In this document: piece after piece, positions 27,291 through 35,104 of the stretch
Layout of the letters: the number at the start of each line of letters is the position of its first letter
How positions within the stretch are numbered: the first letter of the stretch is position 1
Source: Gemmatimonadota bacterium
Lineage (GTDB): Bacteria; Gemmatimonadota; Gemmatimonadetes; Palauibacterales; Palauibacteraceae
Reading direction: 5' to 3'
Length of the DNA stretch: 62,592 bases
NCBI GenBank assembly: GCA_039587445.1
Contig: JBDHIM010000012.1
Coordinates: 1-62,592, forward strand
Position numbers and translations under genes: made by a program
Notes under the pieces: model-generated
What the model was told of the DNA's origin: nothing
Seen by the model: only the letters and a program-made list of their open reading frames with translations
Database searches by the model: none

Positions 27291-27308
27291 ATGCCGGAGG
27301 AGGAACTC
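27291..27308 (-). repeat. att-like copy of the tRNA-Leu 3' end (attR)
   Basis: ATGCCGGAGGAGGAACTC matches 31554-31571 ATGCCGGAGGAGGGACTC at 17/18 positions. Confidence 0.75.
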
Positions 27309-27434
27309 CTGATCTCGTCGTAGGACGCCTGCCTCACCGCGACTCCCGAACCCAGACGTACCTGCACCTAGGGGATTCGAACGAGATCAGGAGCGTCGAG
27401 TGACAGAGGCGAGAGGGGCAGTCTCGATTGACGC

Positions 27435-27815
27435 TCAGGCTTCTGCTCGCCTCACAAAGTGAAAATACCCGAATCCCAGTGCGAGAAGCAGATAAACTGC
27501 GACTGTTGACCAGCCAAGTTCGTTCTCGACCCCACCGAGTTGTGCGAGCAACGCAACGATGAAAGCGATGGCATTGCCAACAAACATCGAAAGCAGGATC
27601 GCACGGCGAGCCACCGAGTCGGCCGCATTCCTGGCAGACCATGTTAGGACCGCGAAGGCGATGAGTGCAGCGCCGACGAGCTGGAACAAATACTTCAACG
27701 CGGCATCGGCTGAATGACCATACTGCGCCAACACCTGGCCAGGCCAGAGGACGAAACTGACGCCGAACACTGCTGCCGCAATTGCGTTGATAACCATCAG
27801 AGTACGGAGCTTCAT
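27435..27815 (-). CDS. hypothetical 4-TM membrane protein (126 aa)
   Basis: Four hydrophobic helices; GGAGG RBS; lower GC than the backbone. Confidence 0.8.
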   Translation of the reverse strand: MKLRTLMVINAIAAAVFGVSFVLWPGQVLAQYGHSADAALKYLFQLVGAALIAFAVLTWSARNAADSVARRAILLSMFVGNAIAFIVALLAQLGGVENELGWSTVAVYLLLALGFGYFHFVRRAEA

Positions 27816-27884
27816 TGGGACGAACCTCCCTTCCTGGGGGGTGGCGCCAAGGCGAGGCTAGTGATGGCTTTCGCTAGAAAGCAG

Positions 27885-27918
27885 AGGCCGGCCCCGAAGG
27901 AACCGCCCCGCTCAGCAC
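27885..27918. repeat. REP/terminator-like palindrome, copy 1
   Basis: Core GGCCCCGAAGGAACCGCCCC (27890-27909) is 19/20 identical to 30719-30738. Confidence 0.55.
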
Positions 27919-28019
27919 TTCCCGAAGCCCAGGCAGGAACCACGAGAACTCGCTTCGCCACGATCTCCTCCAGCCGCCGCTTCGCCACCAGGTGGCCTGC
28001 TAAACCTCTTTCGTAACCC

Positions 28020-30515
28020 TCACTGGATGTAGCCGAGAGCGCGCAGCGTCTCGAGCTGCTCGGCCGTCAGCGTCACCTCGCCCGAGGGAGTGAAGTGTTG
28101 AGCCAAGGCCTGATGCGCCTCCCACTGCCCCTCGAGGAAGGTGGTGTACTTCTCCACCAGGTCGGGCCGTTCCTCGTGGAGGCTGCGCAAGGCGGAGGGA
28201 TCACTCCAGAGGTCGAACAGCAACAACGGCACCGGACGCTGTCGATCCTCCGGCAGGTCGGGATCGGGATTGAGCTCCAGCGACGCGCCCCACCAGCCGT
28301 CGATCACCTCGATCATGCCGCTGAACTCCCCCGTCTCGTGGTCCAAAGTGAACTGGTCCAGGATGATCGGTCGCGGCTCCCAGCCGGCCTCACCCAGCAG
28401 GAGCGGGGCCAGGGACTGCCCCTGCAGGACCTCGGGAAGCGGCAGGTCGGCCAGGTCGAGCACAGTGGGTAGCACATCGATCATCGAGACTGGCTCACTG
28501 AACCGCTGGCCCGGGGCGATGTGCCCCGGCCACACGAAGATGAGCGGGATCCTGCTGATCGAGGGCCGCAGCATCGGTTGGCACCACCGGGGCGGCAGCG
28601 AGTCGAGGATAGCGATGCCCATGTCGTCCATCGCGGCCCGGATGGCATGGTCCGCACCGATGATAAGCAACGTGTTCTCCCATTCGCCCTCGGTCTTGAG
28701 ACGCTCGACGAACCGCCCGATCTGCCAGTCGTTGTGGGCCATGGTCTCGTCGTACATGCCCTGATGGAGAGCGAAGAACTCGACCCTGCTGAGACCGGTC
28801 TTCTCGTAGGCTTCCGAGTAGACGCCGTGGCCACCCGCCTCTCGGAGGCGGTCGTTCCATTCCTTCCATGTCTTCTTCTGCTCGGGACCGACGAAGAGAC
28901 CGGAAAAGGGTGCTACCGCAGGGAAATCCTCGTGCACATCAACGGTCTGGAAGTGCGCCCAGTAAGGCGCGGCGGGATAGCTGTCGCGCCATCGCCAGAA
29001 CCCGTCGTGCAGGTATCTTGACGATTCCGAGTAGTTCTCTTCTCCGAAGTACGTGAACTCCGCCCAATCCTCTTGGAGCAAGTCGACGCCGCGCTCGAGC
29101 CCGCTCAGCGTGCCAGCGTTGGGGTTGGCGATGAACACCGCCGTCTGGTAGCCGGCTCGGTGGAAATGCTGCGCCATCGTCGTCGCTTGCTCCGGCACCT
29201 TTTCCGTCCAGTTCAAACCACCCAGCACGCTATGCTGCAGCGAGGTCATGAAGGAAGCGGTAGATGGTTTCGTCCAGGAGGAGTTGCTGTAGGCGCGCTC
29301 GAACATCGCGCCTTCGGCCGCCAGTCGCTCCAGATTGGGCGTAGTGCGACGGTTGTAGCCATACAGGCTCAGATAGTCTGCGGCGCCGCCATCGATAACG
29401 TAGAAGATGACGTTCGGTCGCCGGGCGGCACCTGCCCCAGTCAGGGTCGGCGCCGACCAGAGCGCAACGGTGCCGGCCGTCTCGGAATCGGCCTCGAGCG
29501 ACAGGGTCACGGTACGCCCGGCCAGGTGCGACAGGTCCACCGAGCGCTGCCCCCAGTGCTCTCTGTCGCCGTACGTCTCCTCGAGCAGAATCTCGGTCTC
29601 GCCGCCGGGCGGCGCGGCGGTGATTCGGAAGGTGACGGGGGAATCGTCAGCCAGCACGCCGAGTCCCAGGTCGAGACGGCCGGCCTCCGGCACCCGGATC
29701 CTATACTCCAGCCGTCCCGGCGCGTGCGTGTAGAGCGTGCCGTGATAAGCGCGGTCGCGGATCTCGGGTCGCACGCCCGCAGGCGCCGCGCTGTAATTGG
29801 CCGCCTTGGGGATCACCTGAACGGAAAGGATGTCGATGCTCGCCTGCTCATCAGCGCTGAACCAGAGGCCTAGCTGCTGCCATGAGCCCTCCCACTCTCC
29901 CCCCGACCAGTCGGCCCGCAGCAGGTACGTCTGCACCGAGCCGTCGTTGAACACATCGAGCCCCTCGCCGAAGAAGCGGTACGGGAAAGGACCGTCCGTG
30001 GCCGTTGCCGAACCCTCCTTCAGGTTGAATCCGAGCCCGAGTTCCTCGACACCCTCCGACGCTCGCGCTCGCACGAGGACATACGACCAGTCCTCGAGAC
30101 TCCAGTCCGGGACGTCGACGTAGATTCCGCCTACGAGCACGCGGCGGTCGTCCCACCATCTGACGAAGGTGTTGGCCTCGGTCAGCGTAAGCTGCAGGGC
30201 GTCGTCGACGTACGTCACGCGGGCCGGCTCGATCTCCTGCCGCCAGGGGCGCACCGGCCTCCACTCCGGCTGCGGCTCATCGAAGCGCCACTGCACCGAG
30301 GTCGGCACCTCCGCCGGCACCTCGGAACCGACGAGAGTCGCCGCTTCGAAATGCTCCTCGAGGTGAAGAGGACGCTCGGCCGTGAGGACCGGCGAGTCGG
30401 ACGGCGAGCCGGAGCCGGAGCAGCCGACGGGCAGAAGCGTGAGAAGAGCAAGCGGAAGGATCCGAGAGACAACGCGACCGAAAATGAGCGCGGGAAGCGC
30501 GAGAAGTCGCTTCAT
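28020..30515 (-). CDS. sulfatase-like hydrolase/transferase (alkaline phosphatase superfamily) with large N-terminal beta domain
   Basis: RPNVIFYVIDGG, TTPNLERLA, SWTKPSTAS, GADHA, RIPLIF, VSMIDVLPT, C-terminal LRALGYIQ; lipobox LPVGC. Confidence 0.85.
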   Translation of the reverse strand: MKRLLALPALIFGRVVSRILPLALLTLLPVGCSGSGSPSDSPVLTAERPLHLEEHFEAATLVGSEVPAEVPTSVQWRFDEPQPEWRPVRPWRQEIEPARVTYVDDALQLTLTEANTFVRWWDDRRVLVGGIYVDVPDWSLEDWSYVLVRARASEGVEELGLGFNLKEGSATATDGPFPYRFFGEGLDVFNDGSVQTYLLRADWSGGEWEGSWQQLGLWFSADEQASIDILSVQVIPKAANYSAAPAGVRPEIRDRAYHGTLYTHAPGRLEYRIRVPEAGRLDLGLGVLADDSPVTFRITAAPPGGETEILLEETYGDREHWGQRSVDLSHLAGRTVTLSLEADSETAGTVALWSAPTLTGAGAARRPNVIFYVIDGGAADYLSLYGYNRRTTPNLERLAAEGAMFERAYSNSSWTKPSTASFMTSLQHSVLGGLNWTEKVPEQATTMAQHFHRAGYQTAVFIANPNAGTLSGLERGVDLLQEDWAEFTYFGEENYSESSRYLHDGFWRWRDSYPAAPYWAHFQTVDVHEDFPAVAPFSGLFVGPEQKKTWKEWNDRLREAGGHGVYSEAYEKTGLSRVEFFALHQGMYDETMAHNDWQIGRFVERLKTEGEWENTLLIIGADHAIRAAMDDMGIAILDSLPPRWCQPMLRPSISRIPLIFVWPGHIAPGQRFSEPVSMIDVLPTVLDLADLPLPEVLQGQSLAPLLLGEAGWEPRPIILDQFTLDHETGEFSGMIEVIDGWWGASLELNPDPDLPEDRQRPVPLLLFDLWSDPSALRSLHEERPDLVEKYTTFLEGQWEAHQALAQHFTPSGEVTLTAEQLETLRALGYIQ

Positions 30516-30523
30516 TGGGATCC

Positions 30524-30663
30524 TCCAAGTGCATATCTACTACTTCCGGTCGCAAGACCGTGGGGGGACTTCTATCGCTCAGAGGCGTCGTGGCCTCGTT
30601 TCATGCACTTGGATATGAAGCGTACAGTATGGCGGAGGGGACCCTGCCATACGCAACTGTACG
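30524..30663 (-). promoter_or_regulatory. candidate structured leader RNA sequestering the RBS
   Basis: An 11-bp perfect stem (30524-30534/30603-30613) encloses two 5-bp hairpins; a second hairpin lies at 30621-30663. Confidence 0.45.
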
Positions 30664-30705
30664 GGTTCTAGGAGGGCGGGATCAGGAGCGTGGAGGGGCC
30701 GCGTT

Positions 30706-30747
30706 GTGCTGAGGGGGCGGCCCCAAAGGAACCGCCCCCTCTTAGCC
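30706..30747. repeat. REP/terminator-like palindrome, copy 2
   Basis: GCTGAGGGGGCGG...CCGCCCCCTCTTAGC hairpin immediately after the stop of 30767-31333. Confidence 0.6.
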
Positions 30748-30766
30748 TACTGCCGCGTTGTTGTGG

Positions 30767-31333
30767 TCAGCGCTCTCTGCTTTCCAGCGGAATCATGATG
30801 TGAGCATACGGCGTGTTCGGCCACATGATCCACGGCCCGCCATTCAGATGATCCGTAGAGATGTTCGCCAACAGCTTCTTGTCCGGCACGACGATCATGA
30901 GGTGTGGGCCCACGTCGGTGACCCAATCCTCTGGCCCAGTCGGCTCTGTCGCGTATGGATCGCTGTTGCTGACTGGCGTATCGCCCTGGAGCATGTAGGC
31001 GAAGCCGATCTCAGTGTACGTGGGCTCCGTTTTGTCCACGTAGGCGTGCAAGAAGTCCATCCACGCCTCGGTAAGGCACCATGGATCGGTGCCCGGAGTT
31101 TCTGCACGGTCGGGGAGGCAAGTCCATTCATTCGTGCCCTCCCGAAGCACGTCCATGTTCCAGTCCAGGACGGTTGCGTCAGCCGAGATGGACGCAGGCG
31201 CTGCGCTCATGGCACTCTTGATCTGCGCCTTGAGTTCCGGCGACGCGTATTCCGCCTCTTGTGCCTGGAGCACGGGCGGTGCAGCGGCGGCAAGTAGCAG
31301 GGCAGCTAGAGTGGGGAGATACTTGGGGTACAT
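30767..31333 (-). CDS. secreted hypothetical protein (188 aa)
   Basis: Signal peptide (AAPPVLQA); WTC...PWC, YMLQGD, GPHLMI, PWIMW..TPYAHIMIP; GGAGG RBS. Confidence 0.85.
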   Translation of the reverse strand: MYPKYLPTLAALLLAAAAPPVLQAQEAEYASPELKAQIKSAMSAAPASISADATVLDWNMDVLREGTNEWTCLPDRAETPGTDPWCLTEAWMDFLHAYVDKTEPTYTEIGFAYMLQGDTPVSNSDPYATEPTGPEDWVTDVGPHLMIVVPDKKLLANISTDHLNGGPWIMWPNTPYAHIMIPLESRER

Positions 31334-31554
31334 CGTGACCTCCTTGAGGCATGCATCTCTGTGATGAAGGAGTCGAGCGATCTATATGGGGGAGGCTCGC
31401 GGCCTCCTGTAAACCGAGGAAGAACCCCTTGCAGCCTAATGGTCGAACCAATCCATGCGAAAGGGCACGGCGGGCCTCTCTTGCGAGGACGAGATCGGGA
31501 GCGGGGTGGAGGGGATCGGTTTTGCTACCTCGGCACCATGCCGGTAAGTCCTTA

Positions 31555-31638
31555 TGCCGGAGGAGGGACTCGAACCCTCAAGGGATTGCTCCCACCGGAT
31601 TTTGAGTCCGGCGCGTCTGCCAGTTCCGCCACTCCGGC
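31555..31638 (-). tRNA. tRNA-Leu(CAA)
   Basis: GCCGGAGTGGCGGAACTGGCAGACGCGCCGGACTCAAAATCCGGTGGGAGCAATCCCTTGAGGGTTCGAGTCCCTCCTCCGGCA; long variable arm; CCA not encoded. Confidence 0.97.
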
Positions 31639-31751
31639 CCGTGGGTCTAACCTATAAACTAGCAGCTAGGTAGAAGGTCCGCCTCCTGTCGCTGCTCACC
31701 TAGGTGGGTGGGTTTCCGGGTTGGGTTCTTCAGATTCCTCGACTCCTCACC

Positions 31752-33072
31752 TCACCGCCGCCCTGCCGTACTCGCGGCCACCTGCTTGATCACCGCACCG
31801 CCTTTCATCACGAAGCGCACGTCGCCGAGCACAGCCACGTCGTCGAGGGGGTTGGTGGGCACGGCGATGAGATCGGCGAAAGCACCGGGCGTCAGCGTGC
31901 CGACGTGGCCGTCCATCTGCATTAATTCGGCGGCGGTCAGCGTAGCGGATTGGACGGCTTGCAGCGGCGTCATCCCATAGGCGACCATCCGCTCGAAATC
32001 GATGGCGTTGTCGCCGTGCGGGAGCGCCCCGGCGTCGGTGCCGTAGGCGATCTTGACGCCTTTCTCGGTCGCGCGGCGGATGGTCCGGGCATGGCCTGCG
32101 TAACTCGCCCCATTCCTCGCGCGGGCCATCGGGGATGTAGACGGAGATCGTGGGAACCCAAAAGGTGCTGTTAGCAACCATCATGTCGAGCGCTTCGTCA
32201 TCGAGGAAGAACCCGTGCTCGATGGATCGGACACCGGCGCGGATGGCGTTTTTGGCTCCCGGTCCGCCGTAGGCATGCGCCGCCACCGGCGTGCGGAACC
32301 GCGCCGCCTCGTCCACCACCAGCTTGAGATCCTCGTAGGAGAACTGGGGCAACGGCTGCATGGTGCGTGGATCGATGTTACGCGTGGTGCCGGTGGCGTA
32401 GATCTTGATCCAGTCCGTTCCATACTTCACCTGGCGGCGCACCTCGGCCACGAGCGCGGCGGGGCTGTCAGCGAGCGCGCCGAACTGCGGTACGTCGATC
32501 TGCGGAGCCAGGCCGTTCTGGTTCATGTAGCCGCCGGTGATGCTGATCGCGAGCGTCGCCACCTGCATGCGCGGCCCCGGCACGAGGCCGTCGTTGATCC
32601 CGTCGCGGACGGCCACATCGGCCCAATCAGCCCCCTCCGAGTCGATATCCCGGATCGTGGTGAAGCCGGCTTCGAGCGTCGCCCGCACCGCGTTGACGGC
32701 CTCGACGGTGCGATACGGAATCGATTTATACAGAATGGGGTTGTTTTCCGCGTAATCCGGTTGCATGCACACGTGCGTGTGTGCGTCGATGAGGCCGGGC
32801 AGCACCACGTAATCGCTCAGATCGATGACCTCGGCCTCCGGCGGGATCCGCACCTGCGGCCCGACGGCCTCAATCCGCTCGCCCCGGATCAAGACGACGG
32901 CGTCGGCGATCAGATTGCCGGTTTCGACTTCTAACAGCGCCCCCGCTCGCAAGGCCACCACGCGCTCTACCGACGCCTCTGTTTGCGCCCGTGCCTCCTC
33001 AGCCAGCAACACACTCAGCATCAGCAGAATCAGCAATCCACGGATCACGACGATAGAGATAAGGCGGTTCAC
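31752..33072 (-). pseudogene. secreted metal-dependent amidohydrolase (Xaa-Pro dipeptidase-like), frameshifted near 32097
   Basis: DAHTH, WIKIY, AHAYG and SIEHG in one frame; KGVKIAYGTDAG...ADLIAV...FVMKGG in another. Confidence 0.85.
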
Positions 33073-33208
33073 AACGGGCCTCCGAGGATGAGATGTTTGA
33101 GTGTTATAGTGTTTTGGTGTTTCAGCTCTTCTTCAGCTCGAACACTATACCACTCAGAGACTGTTTAAATCTTGGGTCTGCAGATGAGCGTGATGAGACT
33201 TCGAAAAC

Positions 33209-33258
33209 GCCGAAAGATCGCGCGCGTCCGGCGCGTCTGCCAGTTCCGCCACTCCGGC
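33209..33258 (-). pseudogene. tRNA-Leu 5' fragment (33 nt exact) plus degenerate acceptor 3' strand
   Basis: 33226-33265 is identical to 31606-31645; gap-free similarity continues to about 33340/31720. Confidence 0.8.
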
Positions 33259-33422
33259 CCGTGGGCCTAACTAATAGACTATCAGTGGAGTAGAAGGTCC
33301 GCCTCCGCGGTTCACTTCATCAGGTGGGCGGGTTTCTGGGCGGGCTATAGCAACGCCTATACGCTGGTAGGCTCTATAAGCTGCCGTACAATTCCTTTCG
33401 AAAAACGATCCGGATCGTGTGG

Positions 33423-34436
33423 CTAGTCGGGCTGCAGCGGCTCGGCTGGACCTTCCGCCCCGTATCGGAACGCGCGCAGGCGATCCGCCTCTCTCGACAG
33501 GAGTAGCAGTTGGGTCGCCGGAGCGTTCAGATCGACCGCCAAAAGCGCCCCCTCGTAGCGACGCGCGATCTCATCGGTCGGCGTGTGGGCGACGACGTGA
33601 AGCTCGCTCTCGAATCGGTCGAGCACCCGGCGCAGCTCCTCGTGGAGCGTATCGGCCTGGACGTAGCTCCGATGCCAAAAGACGCTGTTCTCGCCGAAGA
33701 AGAAGTGGATACGGCGCTCGAGCGCCGTCGAGTCCATAACGATGCGAGGAAGGAGGGTATCGGGTGGAAGACTCCACCGGTAAAAGAGCTCCTCGGACAT
33801 GAATGCGGCCAACGTGTCGTCGAACGCCTGCAGAGAATAGGTGGCGAAGTCGCGTCCGACGCCGCCGTGAGCCAACAGCACGTCACCGATCCGGATTAGA
33901 CCCGGCTTCGTGGCCAACCAGGTTCCGAGCACGGAGCTGCGAATGTCGAACAGTCGCCCGTAGGGCGTTCCGTGCAATTCGGCGATGAGCTGCTCCTTCT
34001 CCGACACGTAGCGGAGGTCGTTGGTGAGGACCATGATCTCGTGATTGCCGAGCACGACGTGGACCCGCCCGCCGGCGGCCTCCGCCTGTCTCTCGAGGCC
34101 GTAGATGAACCAGAGAGTGCGGGTAACGTCCGATCCGCGATCGAAAAGGTCGCCCAGGAAGACGAGATGGCTTCTCCCACCGCTCCAGCGTGCGTCCGAA
34201 TCGATCAGACCCGCGTTCTTGAGAACGGCGGTCAGCGTGTCGAACTCGCCGTGAACGTCCCCGAGCACGAAGAGAGAGTCGACCGGCCCGAAACCTGTGG
34301 GCGCACGCTCAAGTACCGGCCAGATAGTCGTCTGGTGCCGATCCTCATCGCTGCCGACCGCGCCGTAGCGAAGCGTAAGCGGACCGTCCGCCGGCCTCCG
34401 AAACGACGCGGAGTGGGCCCGGCTGGTTGTGGAACG
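33423..34436 (-). pseudogene. metallophosphoesterase (Shewanella-like PPP phosphatase), 5'-truncated
   Basis: GDVHG, GDLFDRG, GNHE, HGG and AHT motifs. The frame stays open and protein-like for about 55 codons above the first GTG but has no start before TAA 34437-34439. Confidence 0.8.
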
Positions 34437-34942
34437 TTACTTCCGACGACGTGTGGGACAAAGACCGGTTCGAGGGGGATACGGTGTACGCGCGCCACTT
34501 TGCGAACCTGAACCTCTTCACCTTCCTCATCCGTCACAGCGACGCGAATCAGGGCAACCTGCTCATCTCGAGCATCAGTTCGAATCCCCGGGTCTTCGCC
34601 GTGGACAACGGTGTCGCCTTCAGCCGCAGGGAGGAGAGCGACCGAGGCACGAAGTGGCGGAGGCTCACCGTGAAGCGGCTGCCGCGGAAAACGGTCGATC
34701 GTCTTCGAGCGCTGACCCGCGAGGACCTGGACCGGCGCCTATCGGTCGTCGCGCAGTTCCAGCTCGTCGGCGACCAGCTCGTGCCGGTGACACCCACCGG
34801 GCCGATCGAGGCCAGCGGGGGCATGCGCAGGAGAGAAGACGTCGTGCAGCTCGGCCTCACCGACTACGAGATCGGCCAGATTTGGGGCCGGATCCAGAAA
34901 GTGCTCGACGAGGTGGACGAGGGGAAGATCGCGCTCTTTTAA
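34424..34942 (+). pseudogene. C-terminal fragment of an atypical kinase-like protein
   Basis: HSDANQGNLLI (D-x4-N catalytic-loop-like) and FAVDNGVAF (DxG-like); no N-lobe or credible start. Confidence 0.55.
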
Positions 34943-35104
34943 TCACAACCCACTGGCGGCGAAGCATGGTACTGGCGCATGCCTCGCACATGAGAAAGAC
35001 CCGATGGCTCTCCGCTGGTTCCTGCGTACTATCGGCAGAGTAGATGGTCCACTCTAGCGGTGCCGCCACTTGCGCCCGCGCTGAACTTCTCCGGCGACCA
35101 CGGG

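Follow-up and report, generated by a model that had tools for sequence, protein, structure and literature searches.

How does the 5′ part of a transfer RNA (tRNA) gene, together with the DNA in front of it, come to stand a second time upstream of the intact gene, with a single protein-coding gene in between? The tRNA-Leu(CAA) locus of a Gemmatimonadota bacterium (GCA_039587445.1) raises this question. The locus lies on contig JBDHIM010000012.1 (C215), which was analyzed over its whole length of 62,592 nucleotides (nt) and is referred to as the window. The window is an entire contig of a metagenome-assembled genome (MAG; G000) with 89% completeness, and 11 other genomes of the genus served as the comparison set. 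When DNA integrates into a tRNA gene, it is nearly always the 3′ part of the gene that is replaced, and the host promoter is kept. At the locus described here the polarity is the opposite, and the 1620-bp unit upstream of tRNA-Leu(CAA) is probably (at a rough probability of 0.6) a non-autonomous or decayed reverse-polarity integration unit. The choice between non-autonomous and decayed arises because the unit has no recombinase of its own. The components of the unit and its target are as follows.

31555..31638, minus strand: intact tRNA-Leu(CAA), 84 nt (ARAGORN; Rfam RF00005, 58.4 bits).
31606-31638, minus strand: tRNA portion of the left repeat copy, equal to nt 1-33 of the intact tRNA-Leu(CAA).
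31639..31726, minus strand: tRNA-proximal leader, variant 'type I' (repeat family D1, alignment with the leaders of relatives, motif scan).
31747..33072, minus strand: cargo, an amidohydrolase open reading frame (ORF), a frameshifted pseudogene in the window (Pfam PF01979, in two frames; intact copy in a second assembly, contig L201).
33073..33225, minus strand: AT-richer arm or 5′ untranslated region of 153 bp, from the orphan to the cargo start (GC content 0.48-0.52, compared with ~0.64 around it).
33226..33258, minus strand: orphan tRNA-Leu(CAA) 5′ part, nt 1-33 (repeat analysis and base count).
33259..33346, minus strand: orphan leader, variant 'type II' (repeat analysis, alignment with the leaders of relatives, motif scan).

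The unit is delimited by a direct repeat (31606-31686 and 33226-33306) that extends to about 115 bp in a within-genome comparison (E=3e-26) and whose copies are 1620 bp apart. Each copy consists of tRNA-Leu(CAA) nt 1-33 and about 82 nt of the upstream leader. By base count, the first 40 positions are identical (40/40; tRNA nt 1-33 and seven leader bases), followed by 51/75 (68%), for a total of 91/115. In addition, an exact 17-mer, GTAGAAGGTCCGCCTCC, is present in both leader copies (31670-31686 and 33290-33306). These counts agree with the initial annotation of the locus, which had described 40 identical bp, similarity over about 115 bp, and a 17-bp block. The same annotation had placed the end of the orphan at the first base of the anticodon loop, after tRNA nt 1-33, and this was confirmed by the repeat analysis as well as by the same junction in contig L201. 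After nt 33 the orphan continues into GCGCGCGATCTTTCGGCG (longer read-on, GCGCGCGATC), and the junction reads GGAC followed by GCGCGCG. The sole ORF between the two repeat copies encodes an amidohydrolase (Pfam PF01979), so the single gene that had been predicted there was recovered, in frameshifted form. The further suggestion that the orphan could give a 50-nt mini-tRNA-like RNA found no support. The fold of the orphan is no better than that of shuffled sequences (z = +0.68 and +0.99), the orphan region has no match to the tRNA model RF00005 at E<=1, and an Rfam search of the orphan and of the extra leader copies of G005 and G011 gave no match. A scan of the GTDB species genomes for further 5′ parts of tRNA-Leu that end at nt 33 gave a single match, an unrelated intact tRNA-Leu(TAA).

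Elements of the same polarity occur elsewhere in this lineage. In the viral contig IMGVR_UViG_3300037515_000929 (L223), a tyrosine integrase of 382 aa precedes direct repeats (two of GGGACGGTTCT, and GGTGGGCGGTCCTGGGCGGTCCC); the repeats are succeeded by precisely nt 1-44 of tRNA-Leu(CAA), beyond which the sequence is unrelated. No tRNA was called at this site of L223, and no 3′ part of tRNA-Leu(CAA) was found there. To judge from this order, the site is a reversed attP that carries the 5′ part of tRNA-Leu(CAA). In the sister species G002, a prophage-like element is located directly upstream of the tRNA-Leu(CAA) leader and co-oriented with it (L027, C46:6626-15911). This element includes two ORFs, a tyrosine integrase, an S78 prohead protease, Rep, and a terminase; its far end runs off the contig, and the 3′ flank of the tRNA is the conserved chromosomal one. 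A second viral contig, IMGVR_UViG_3300041809_003455 (L222), ends in a complete tRNA-Leu(CAA) (positions 41-129). The 5′ half of that tRNA is identical to the one in the window and its 3′ half is different, with 85% identity overall.

Similar units are found at other tRNA genes of G000 itself. Contigs C112 and C186 overlap by 114 nt and together give a tRNA-Val(TAC) locus (L204, C112:4019-4284; L203, C186:3610-8882). The order at this locus is an orphan (nt 1-43), an arm, and a TPR gene, then another orphan, an arm, and an S9 peptidase gene, and finally the leader and the intact tRNA-Val. The arm is conserved and AT-rich, and the two arms are 88% identical to each other. No recombinase is present in the inner unit. 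From the orphan through the 3′ end of the tRNA, proximal leader included, this inner unit is 98-100% identical to G011:C189, and the flanks are unalignable. Because the ordinary flank common to the G000 and G011 species is only about 68% identical, the inner unit has evidently moved, together with its leader, between species recently. Moreover, 5′ orphans derived from Val-like, Ala(TGC), and Ile(GAT) tRNAs share one breakpoint, after ...AAGC (G000 C8:4860-6600, C8:8035-8092, and C39:3997-4170; L202). Each of them leads into the same arm, about 130 nt long (GAGCCCGAGATCCGCC...CAACAGCCCCAGCAACAGCCCCA), which is a second conserved arm, is found in 9/12 genus genomes, and has no match in Rfam. The window unit resembles these lineage units in design, with its 153-bp arm, one co-oriented gene, a short spacer, a leader, and a tRNA 5′ part. 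Reverse-polarity integration at the 5′ side of tRNA genes is thus, as far as sequence comparison can tell, real for tRNA-Leu(CAA) and for this lineage.

For the window unit, the following series of steps may be proposed. Site-specific integration into the 5′ side of tRNA-Leu(CAA) would have produced the 1620-bp unit, which is laid out as arm, amidohydrolase gene, about 25 nt, leader, and tRNA nt 1-33. The incoming DNA would bring a tRNA 5′ part and its upstream leader, and recombination inside the tRNA would rebuild an intact gene from the 5′ part of the element and the 3′ part of the chromosome. The former 5′ part and its leader would be left as an orphan beyond the far side of the insert. 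The unit may be a non-autonomous cassette on which integrases encoded by resident elements, or by related ones, acted in trans. Alternatively, it may be the remnant of a larger element, in which case an internal deletion would also have taken nt 34-44 of the orphan.

Independent evidence for this arrangement comes from the JGI metagenome contig Ga0255055_10072726 (L201), the one contig matched by a junction-spanning pattern. The order in L201 is that of the window, namely the orphan leader, tRNA nt 1-33, GCGCGCGATC..., the amidohydrolase gene, a leader, and the tRNA. Between the orphan and the stop codon of the cargo, the two sequences are 98.6% identical, and 14 extra bases in L201 restore the reading frame. 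The flanking leaders are 71-86% identical. Because the insert is so much more similar than both of these leaders, its history appears to differ from that of its flanks. The initial annotation had named a mis-assembled second copy as a finding that could overturn the reading, and a chimeric join at a conserved tRNA may be thought of for any MAG contig, in particular since the contigs of relatives often break at tRNA-Leu(CAA). However, a chimera would switch flanks, not make a truncated copy followed by unique sequence. As an independent contig carries the identical junction and order, the repeat and its insert are evidently not an artifact of assembly, and we give this explanation hardly any credence.

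The cargo also has a history distinct from that of its host. It is of a secreted Xaa-Pro-dipeptidase-like type (NCBIfam NF051886, 375 bits, which is under the 500-bit cut-off). In the window, frame A runs into Arg-rich nonsense beyond about residue 320, and the true C-terminus is in a different frame. Relative to the intact L201 copy, the frameshift was caused by a 14-nt deletion (AAGCCATCATCGAC) between 32097 and 32096, flanked by GCCAT microhomologies. In this genome the amidohydrolase gene is by these features a pseudogene and would be inactive at present; it is intact in the sister strain. The best homologs of the cargo are from Rhodothermales and Bacteroidota (<=74% amino acid identity), and the flanking phosphoesterase has orthologs with 90-92% identity in Gemmatimonadales MAGs, which identifies the host as Gemmatimonadales. 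Because no ortholog of the cargo exists in the 11 other genus genomes, its best relatives are in Rhodothermales, and the host flanks are from Gemmatimonadales, the cargo is evidently foreign to the genus. Among its homologs in other genomes, none is located beside pieces of tRNA-Leu and none is in viral contigs; a look-up of the exact protein of the frameshifted ORF returned no record. The 153-bp arm next to the cargo contains a 16-bp inverted repeat (33098-33113 and 33141-33156). It is 97% conserved in L201, and no other copy of it is present in the genus relatives.

The two leaders provide further information on the order of events. In addition to the 17-mer, the type I leader contains a -10-like box, TAGTTTAT, and a direct-repeat module, ACCCAACCCGGAAACCCACCCACC, at 31703-31726, and the type II leader contains the box TAGTCTAT and the module AGCCCGCCCAGAAACCCGCCCACC at 33323-33346. 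Compared with the leader of G002:C46, the closest relative, the orphan leader is 88% identical and the proximal leader 78%. The flanking genes have 88-92% identity to those of G002, similar to the 88% of the orphan leader. The closer similarity of the orphan leader to that of G002 fits the proximal leader as the later arrival. Because the tRNA part is perfectly identical while the divergence between the leaders is at the level seen between species, the comparison points to different origins of the two leaders rather than a recent local copy.

These patterns bear on the possibility that the leader and the 5′ half were duplicated locally, in tandem or dispersed, and then decayed. The initial annotation had offered tandem duplication as its alternative. 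Both copies do share 40 identical bases and a lineage-specific C at position -2, as a local duplication would predict. However, the interiors that follow the two copies over 1.5 kb (31721-33225 and 33341-34845) are unrelated and the common sequence amounts to 115 bp only, so there is no tandem unit, and a plain tandem duplication is essentially excluded. Furthermore, a leader divergence of 32% beside 0/40 differences is incompatible with one age for both, and the cargo is foreign. Local duplication is consequently given very little weight.

The direct repeats that make up the leader module (AACCCGCCCA twice) are similar to those next to the viral attP, and a motif scan of G000 found the module only at the tRNA-Leu and tRNA-Val cassette loci. 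It is best read as a set of putative arm-type integrase binding sites beside a promoter-like box of the TAGTTTAG type. A role of the module as a generic promoter was considered and rejected, given this restricted distribution in G000 and the similar repeat at the viral attP. A scan of the locus for sigma-70 promoters and terminators, which is uninformative for this phylum, found nothing.

The tRNA-Leu(CAA) gene is also a target of classical elements in the relatives. Orphan 3′ halves of this tRNA are numerous there and all begin at nt 32 (ACTCAAAA...), with repeats that span nt 32-84. Three of these orphan 3′ halves share a conserved element arm, and integrase genes adjoin some of them. Because the orphan 3′ halves all start at nt 32, classical elements evidently cross over in the anticodon loop of tRNA-Leu(CAA), with a breakpoint 1-2 nt from the end of the window orphan.

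This breakpoint may also be explained by homology-facilitated illegitimate recombination, in which no site-specific recombinase takes part. DNA of a related strain with the amidohydrolase gene, a leader, and tRNA-Leu would have been anchored in the invariant tRNA or its 3′ flank and joined at nt 33, truncating the resident tRNA copy. Such an origin would account for the missing integrase. The sequence of tRNA-Leu(CAA), which is 100% identical in all genus relatives, could have served as the anchor; the 3′ side of the gene has been replaced as well relative to G002 and G009; and the orphan junction, where GACGCGCCGGAC meets GCGCGCG, shows GAC/GCGC microhomology. However, a break this close to the integrase breakpoints at the same tRNA would have a chance of about 6% by our estimate. 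The tRNA-Val, Ala, and Ile genes also show the same architecture, in which the arms are conserved and the breakpoints fixed, and L201 has the same junction between different leaders. Illegitimate recombination is for us an unlikely origin of the unit.

Several observations nevertheless weigh against a reverse-polarity integration unit in the window. No tyrosine recombinase (PF00589) is encoded in the insert or anywhere on the 62.6-kb contig, and the whole MAG contains only three, none of which is near the tRNA-Leu locus. An integrase is present beside the 5′ side of tRNA-Leu in G002:C46 and L223 and absent in the window. The integrases of G002:C46 and L223 are themselves unrelated to each other, which leaves no one recombinase family to be named. 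Nucleotides 34-44 are missing from the orphan, whereas nt 32-44 are common to the repeats of classical elements (nt 32-84) and the viral attP of reversed polarity (nt 1-44). Because it ends at nt 33, short of nt 34-44, the orphan is not a pristine att site, and an ordinary anticodon-loop exchange would need a later deletion or another crossover site. The C at position -2 is found in both window copies and in no relative, which points to gene conversion over the first 40 bp or to a local origin of at least those 40 bp. An empty site, with the phosphoesterase joined directly to an intact tRNA-Leu as the initial annotation had anticipated for relatives, was found at none of the phosphoesterase loci of 80 species. 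Finally, past the stop codon of the cargo, L201 and the window differ by a 77-nt indel, and their proximal leaders are about 71-84% identical. The simple expectation that cargo and downstream leader move together therefore appears to fail at the tRNA-Leu unit, unlike at tRNA-Val.

The window unit is accordingly atypical in three respects, namely the absence of an integrase, an orphan that ends at nt 33, and a proximal leader that is not conserved with the cargo in L201. The reverse-polarity integration proposed earlier for this locus is thus upheld in part. In its favor are the viral attP with nt 1-44, the prophage-like element of G002, the tRNA-Val unit, and the foreign cargo; the lack of an integrase and of nt 34-44 in the orphan count against it. 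The associated idea that the cassette had supplied a new leader and promoter holds for the tRNA-Val unit and may or may not apply to the unit in the window, whose proximal leader differs from the orphan leader and from the leader of G002 but is not conserved with the cargo in L201. As for the non-autonomous or decayed integration unit that we favor, we infer that it entered by an integrase, which of the two leaders is native, and that the promoter of the orphan would read into the cargo.

The divergence of the leaders between the window and L201 may be taken to suggest an integron-like capture platform. In such a platform, the repeat of leader and tRNA fragment would be a recombination site with an outward promoter, at which trans-acting recombinases insert or exchange ORF-sized blocks, and only the arm and the ORF would be mobile. 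When the window is compared with L201, conservation begins at the orphan and ends precisely with the stop codon, and neither leader is the same. In G011:C132 (L030), three leader copies separate ORF-sized blocks, one of which is a genus core gene that is absent beside its usual neighbor gene (G011:C3) and present in the array. To the right of the window orphan, the phosphoesterase block and the block at 34423-34945 are rearranged compared with six relatives, with a breakpoint at 34423. The cassette genes beside leader copies are all co-oriented with the tRNA. However, these patterns come from just four small MAG or metagenome loci, and MAG contigs may be chimeric. Neither a recombinase nor a conserved site is present at the 3′ ends of the blocks. 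Moreover, the tRNA-Val unit moves whole, proximal leader included, which fits ordinary reverse-polarity elements. As an explanation of the window unit, a capture platform is doubtful. The corresponding proposal for the genus is that the 5′ side of some tRNA genes is a gene-capture array, in which arm-type sites, the tRNA promoter, and the tRNA 5′ fragment act as recombination site and outward promoter, and blocks that include foreign genes and relocated core genes would be inserted, stacked, and swapped between species in trans. This proposal is speculative and at present rather improbable.

Reverse-orientation tDNA integrative elements reportedly have their own integrase and extend over many kilobases, and tRNA integrases are said to include anticodon-loop and T-loop classes. 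Recombination with the 5′-distal part of a tRNA is documented but rare; the cases summarized in PMC6563490 include the elements of Zhao and Williams (2002, J Bacteriol 184:859) and several from archaea. In Klebsiella pneumoniae, genomic islands have been described at the 5′ end of the arg2 gene (bioRxiv 10.1101/2020.11.02.365908). The window unit is like the reverse-orientation elements and the arg2 islands in that a tRNA 5′ part stands in duplicate, with the insert in front of the complete gene. Whereas such elements reportedly bring an integrase with them and reach many kilobases, the window unit has 1.6 kb, one gene, and no recombinase. It differs further in that its repeat includes about 82 nt of leader, its orphan ends ahead of the anticodon loop, and it is part of a genus-wide pattern with stacked units at several tRNAs. 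CalSub-E1 in tRNA-Ser also involves the rare 5′-distal recombination, with tandem arrays formed by re-use of one site, but elements of this type belong to another domain of life and encode an integrase (PMC6563490).

Other known systems share single traits with the window unit. The classical anticodon-loop and T-loop integrases, which are present in the relatives, use the same tRNA, with a breakpoint at the 5′ edge of the anticodon loop (nt 32, compared with nt 33 in the window), and the window also has an 18-bp repeat of the T-loop type on the 3′ side. These integrases act with the opposite polarity, and the window orphan lacks the loop segment that is common to such sites. In non-autonomous islands of the CIME or satellite type, att-like direct repeats surround a small cargo without a recombinase, as they do here. 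Such islands are mobilized in trans, which for the window unit is a proposal only, and the window repeat is on the 5′ side with a promoter-like leader. Integron cassette arrays and CALINs likewise consist of ORF-sized, co-oriented units between variable repeats with an upstream promoter. They differ from the window in that no IntI is present in the latter and the repeat is a tRNA leader and tRNA fragment. The repeats are direct leader copies and not attC-type palindromes, and no search with an attC model was made. The window unit is therefore of a kind that is known but rare, and it is a variant of this kind, not a new system.

The surroundings of the locus contain two further tRNA-related features.

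27291..27308, minus strand: 18-bp tRNA 3′-end remnant, from the T-loop to the CCA-proximal end.
35023..35050, minus strand: possible third, heavily decayed leader fragment (22/28 identical to the core of the type II leader; the BLAST E-value is not significant alone).

In G002 and in the closed genome G009, a conserved gene, which ends at about 25650 in the window, adjoins the 3′ end of the tRNA, and the window has extra DNA at this place. The 18-bp remnant bounds an integrase-less islet of 4.26 kb (27309-31554) 3′ of the same tRNA. This 3′ side (27291-31554) holds two genes, one sulfatase-like and the other an ORF of 188 aa. The 18-bp remnant has an ortholog in the older 3′-half remnant of G010:C49, and the orthologous remnants in G010 and G012 have insertions at the same T-loop position. 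Across the genome, an intergenic repeat with the box GATCAGGAGCGTGGAGGGGCC is present in 23 copies on 14 contigs. The copies are often about 1 kb apart, and the box is sometimes followed by a hairpin (GAGGGGGCGG-CCCCAAAGGAA-CCGCCCCCTC). In the window, this repeat is located at 30680-30741, 31484-31514, 27379-27400, and 27889-27909, near both ends of the 3′ islet and upstream of the sulfatase-like gene.

On the 5′ side, the upstream flanks of tRNA-Leu(CAA) differ in every relative. The possible third leader fragment is co-oriented with the other leaders and matches the second leader copy of G005 in position, which weakly suggests a further copy. The block of the phosphoesterase (33403-34423) and the gene block adjoining it (34423-34945) meet in a sharp join at 34423 and are circularly permuted compared with G001, G002, and four other relatives. 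In those six relatives the second block is downstream of the phosphoesterase, with 1.3 kb between the two in G001 and G002. In G011:C132, the segment 4236-5320 encodes a 306-aa Tat-signal protein, a single-copy core gene of the genus, and lies between two tRNA-Leu leader copies. In G007:C23 (L026, 14862-15324), the segment of leader and tRNA-Leu runs in the opposite direction with respect to the left flank, which is conserved. The 286 bp in front of this segment have their counterpart in G002:C264, where they follow a second copy of tRNA-Leu(CAA). This arrangement may reflect an inversion that took place between tRNA copies, or else a join made in assembly.

Taken as a whole, the opposite polarity takes three forms at one tRNA, namely the free attP of a viral contig, an element resembling a prophage, and a unit with one gene and no recombinase. 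It recurs in the same genome as stacked similar units at tRNA-Val and as orphan 5′ fragments upstream of tRNA-Ala. For genome annotation, orphan 5′ fragments of tRNAs in these genomes mark the upstream borders of islands, and island finders that are tuned to 3′ repeats will miss them. The locus offers a natural setting to ask how an element hands a new promoter to a tRNA gene, and whether a displaced tRNA promoter expresses the cargo. It also shows the spread of tiny non-autonomous units between species of an uncultured phylum. The main interest lies in the recurrence across the lineage and in the possible capture array, which, if true, would be an integron-like system built on tRNA genes.

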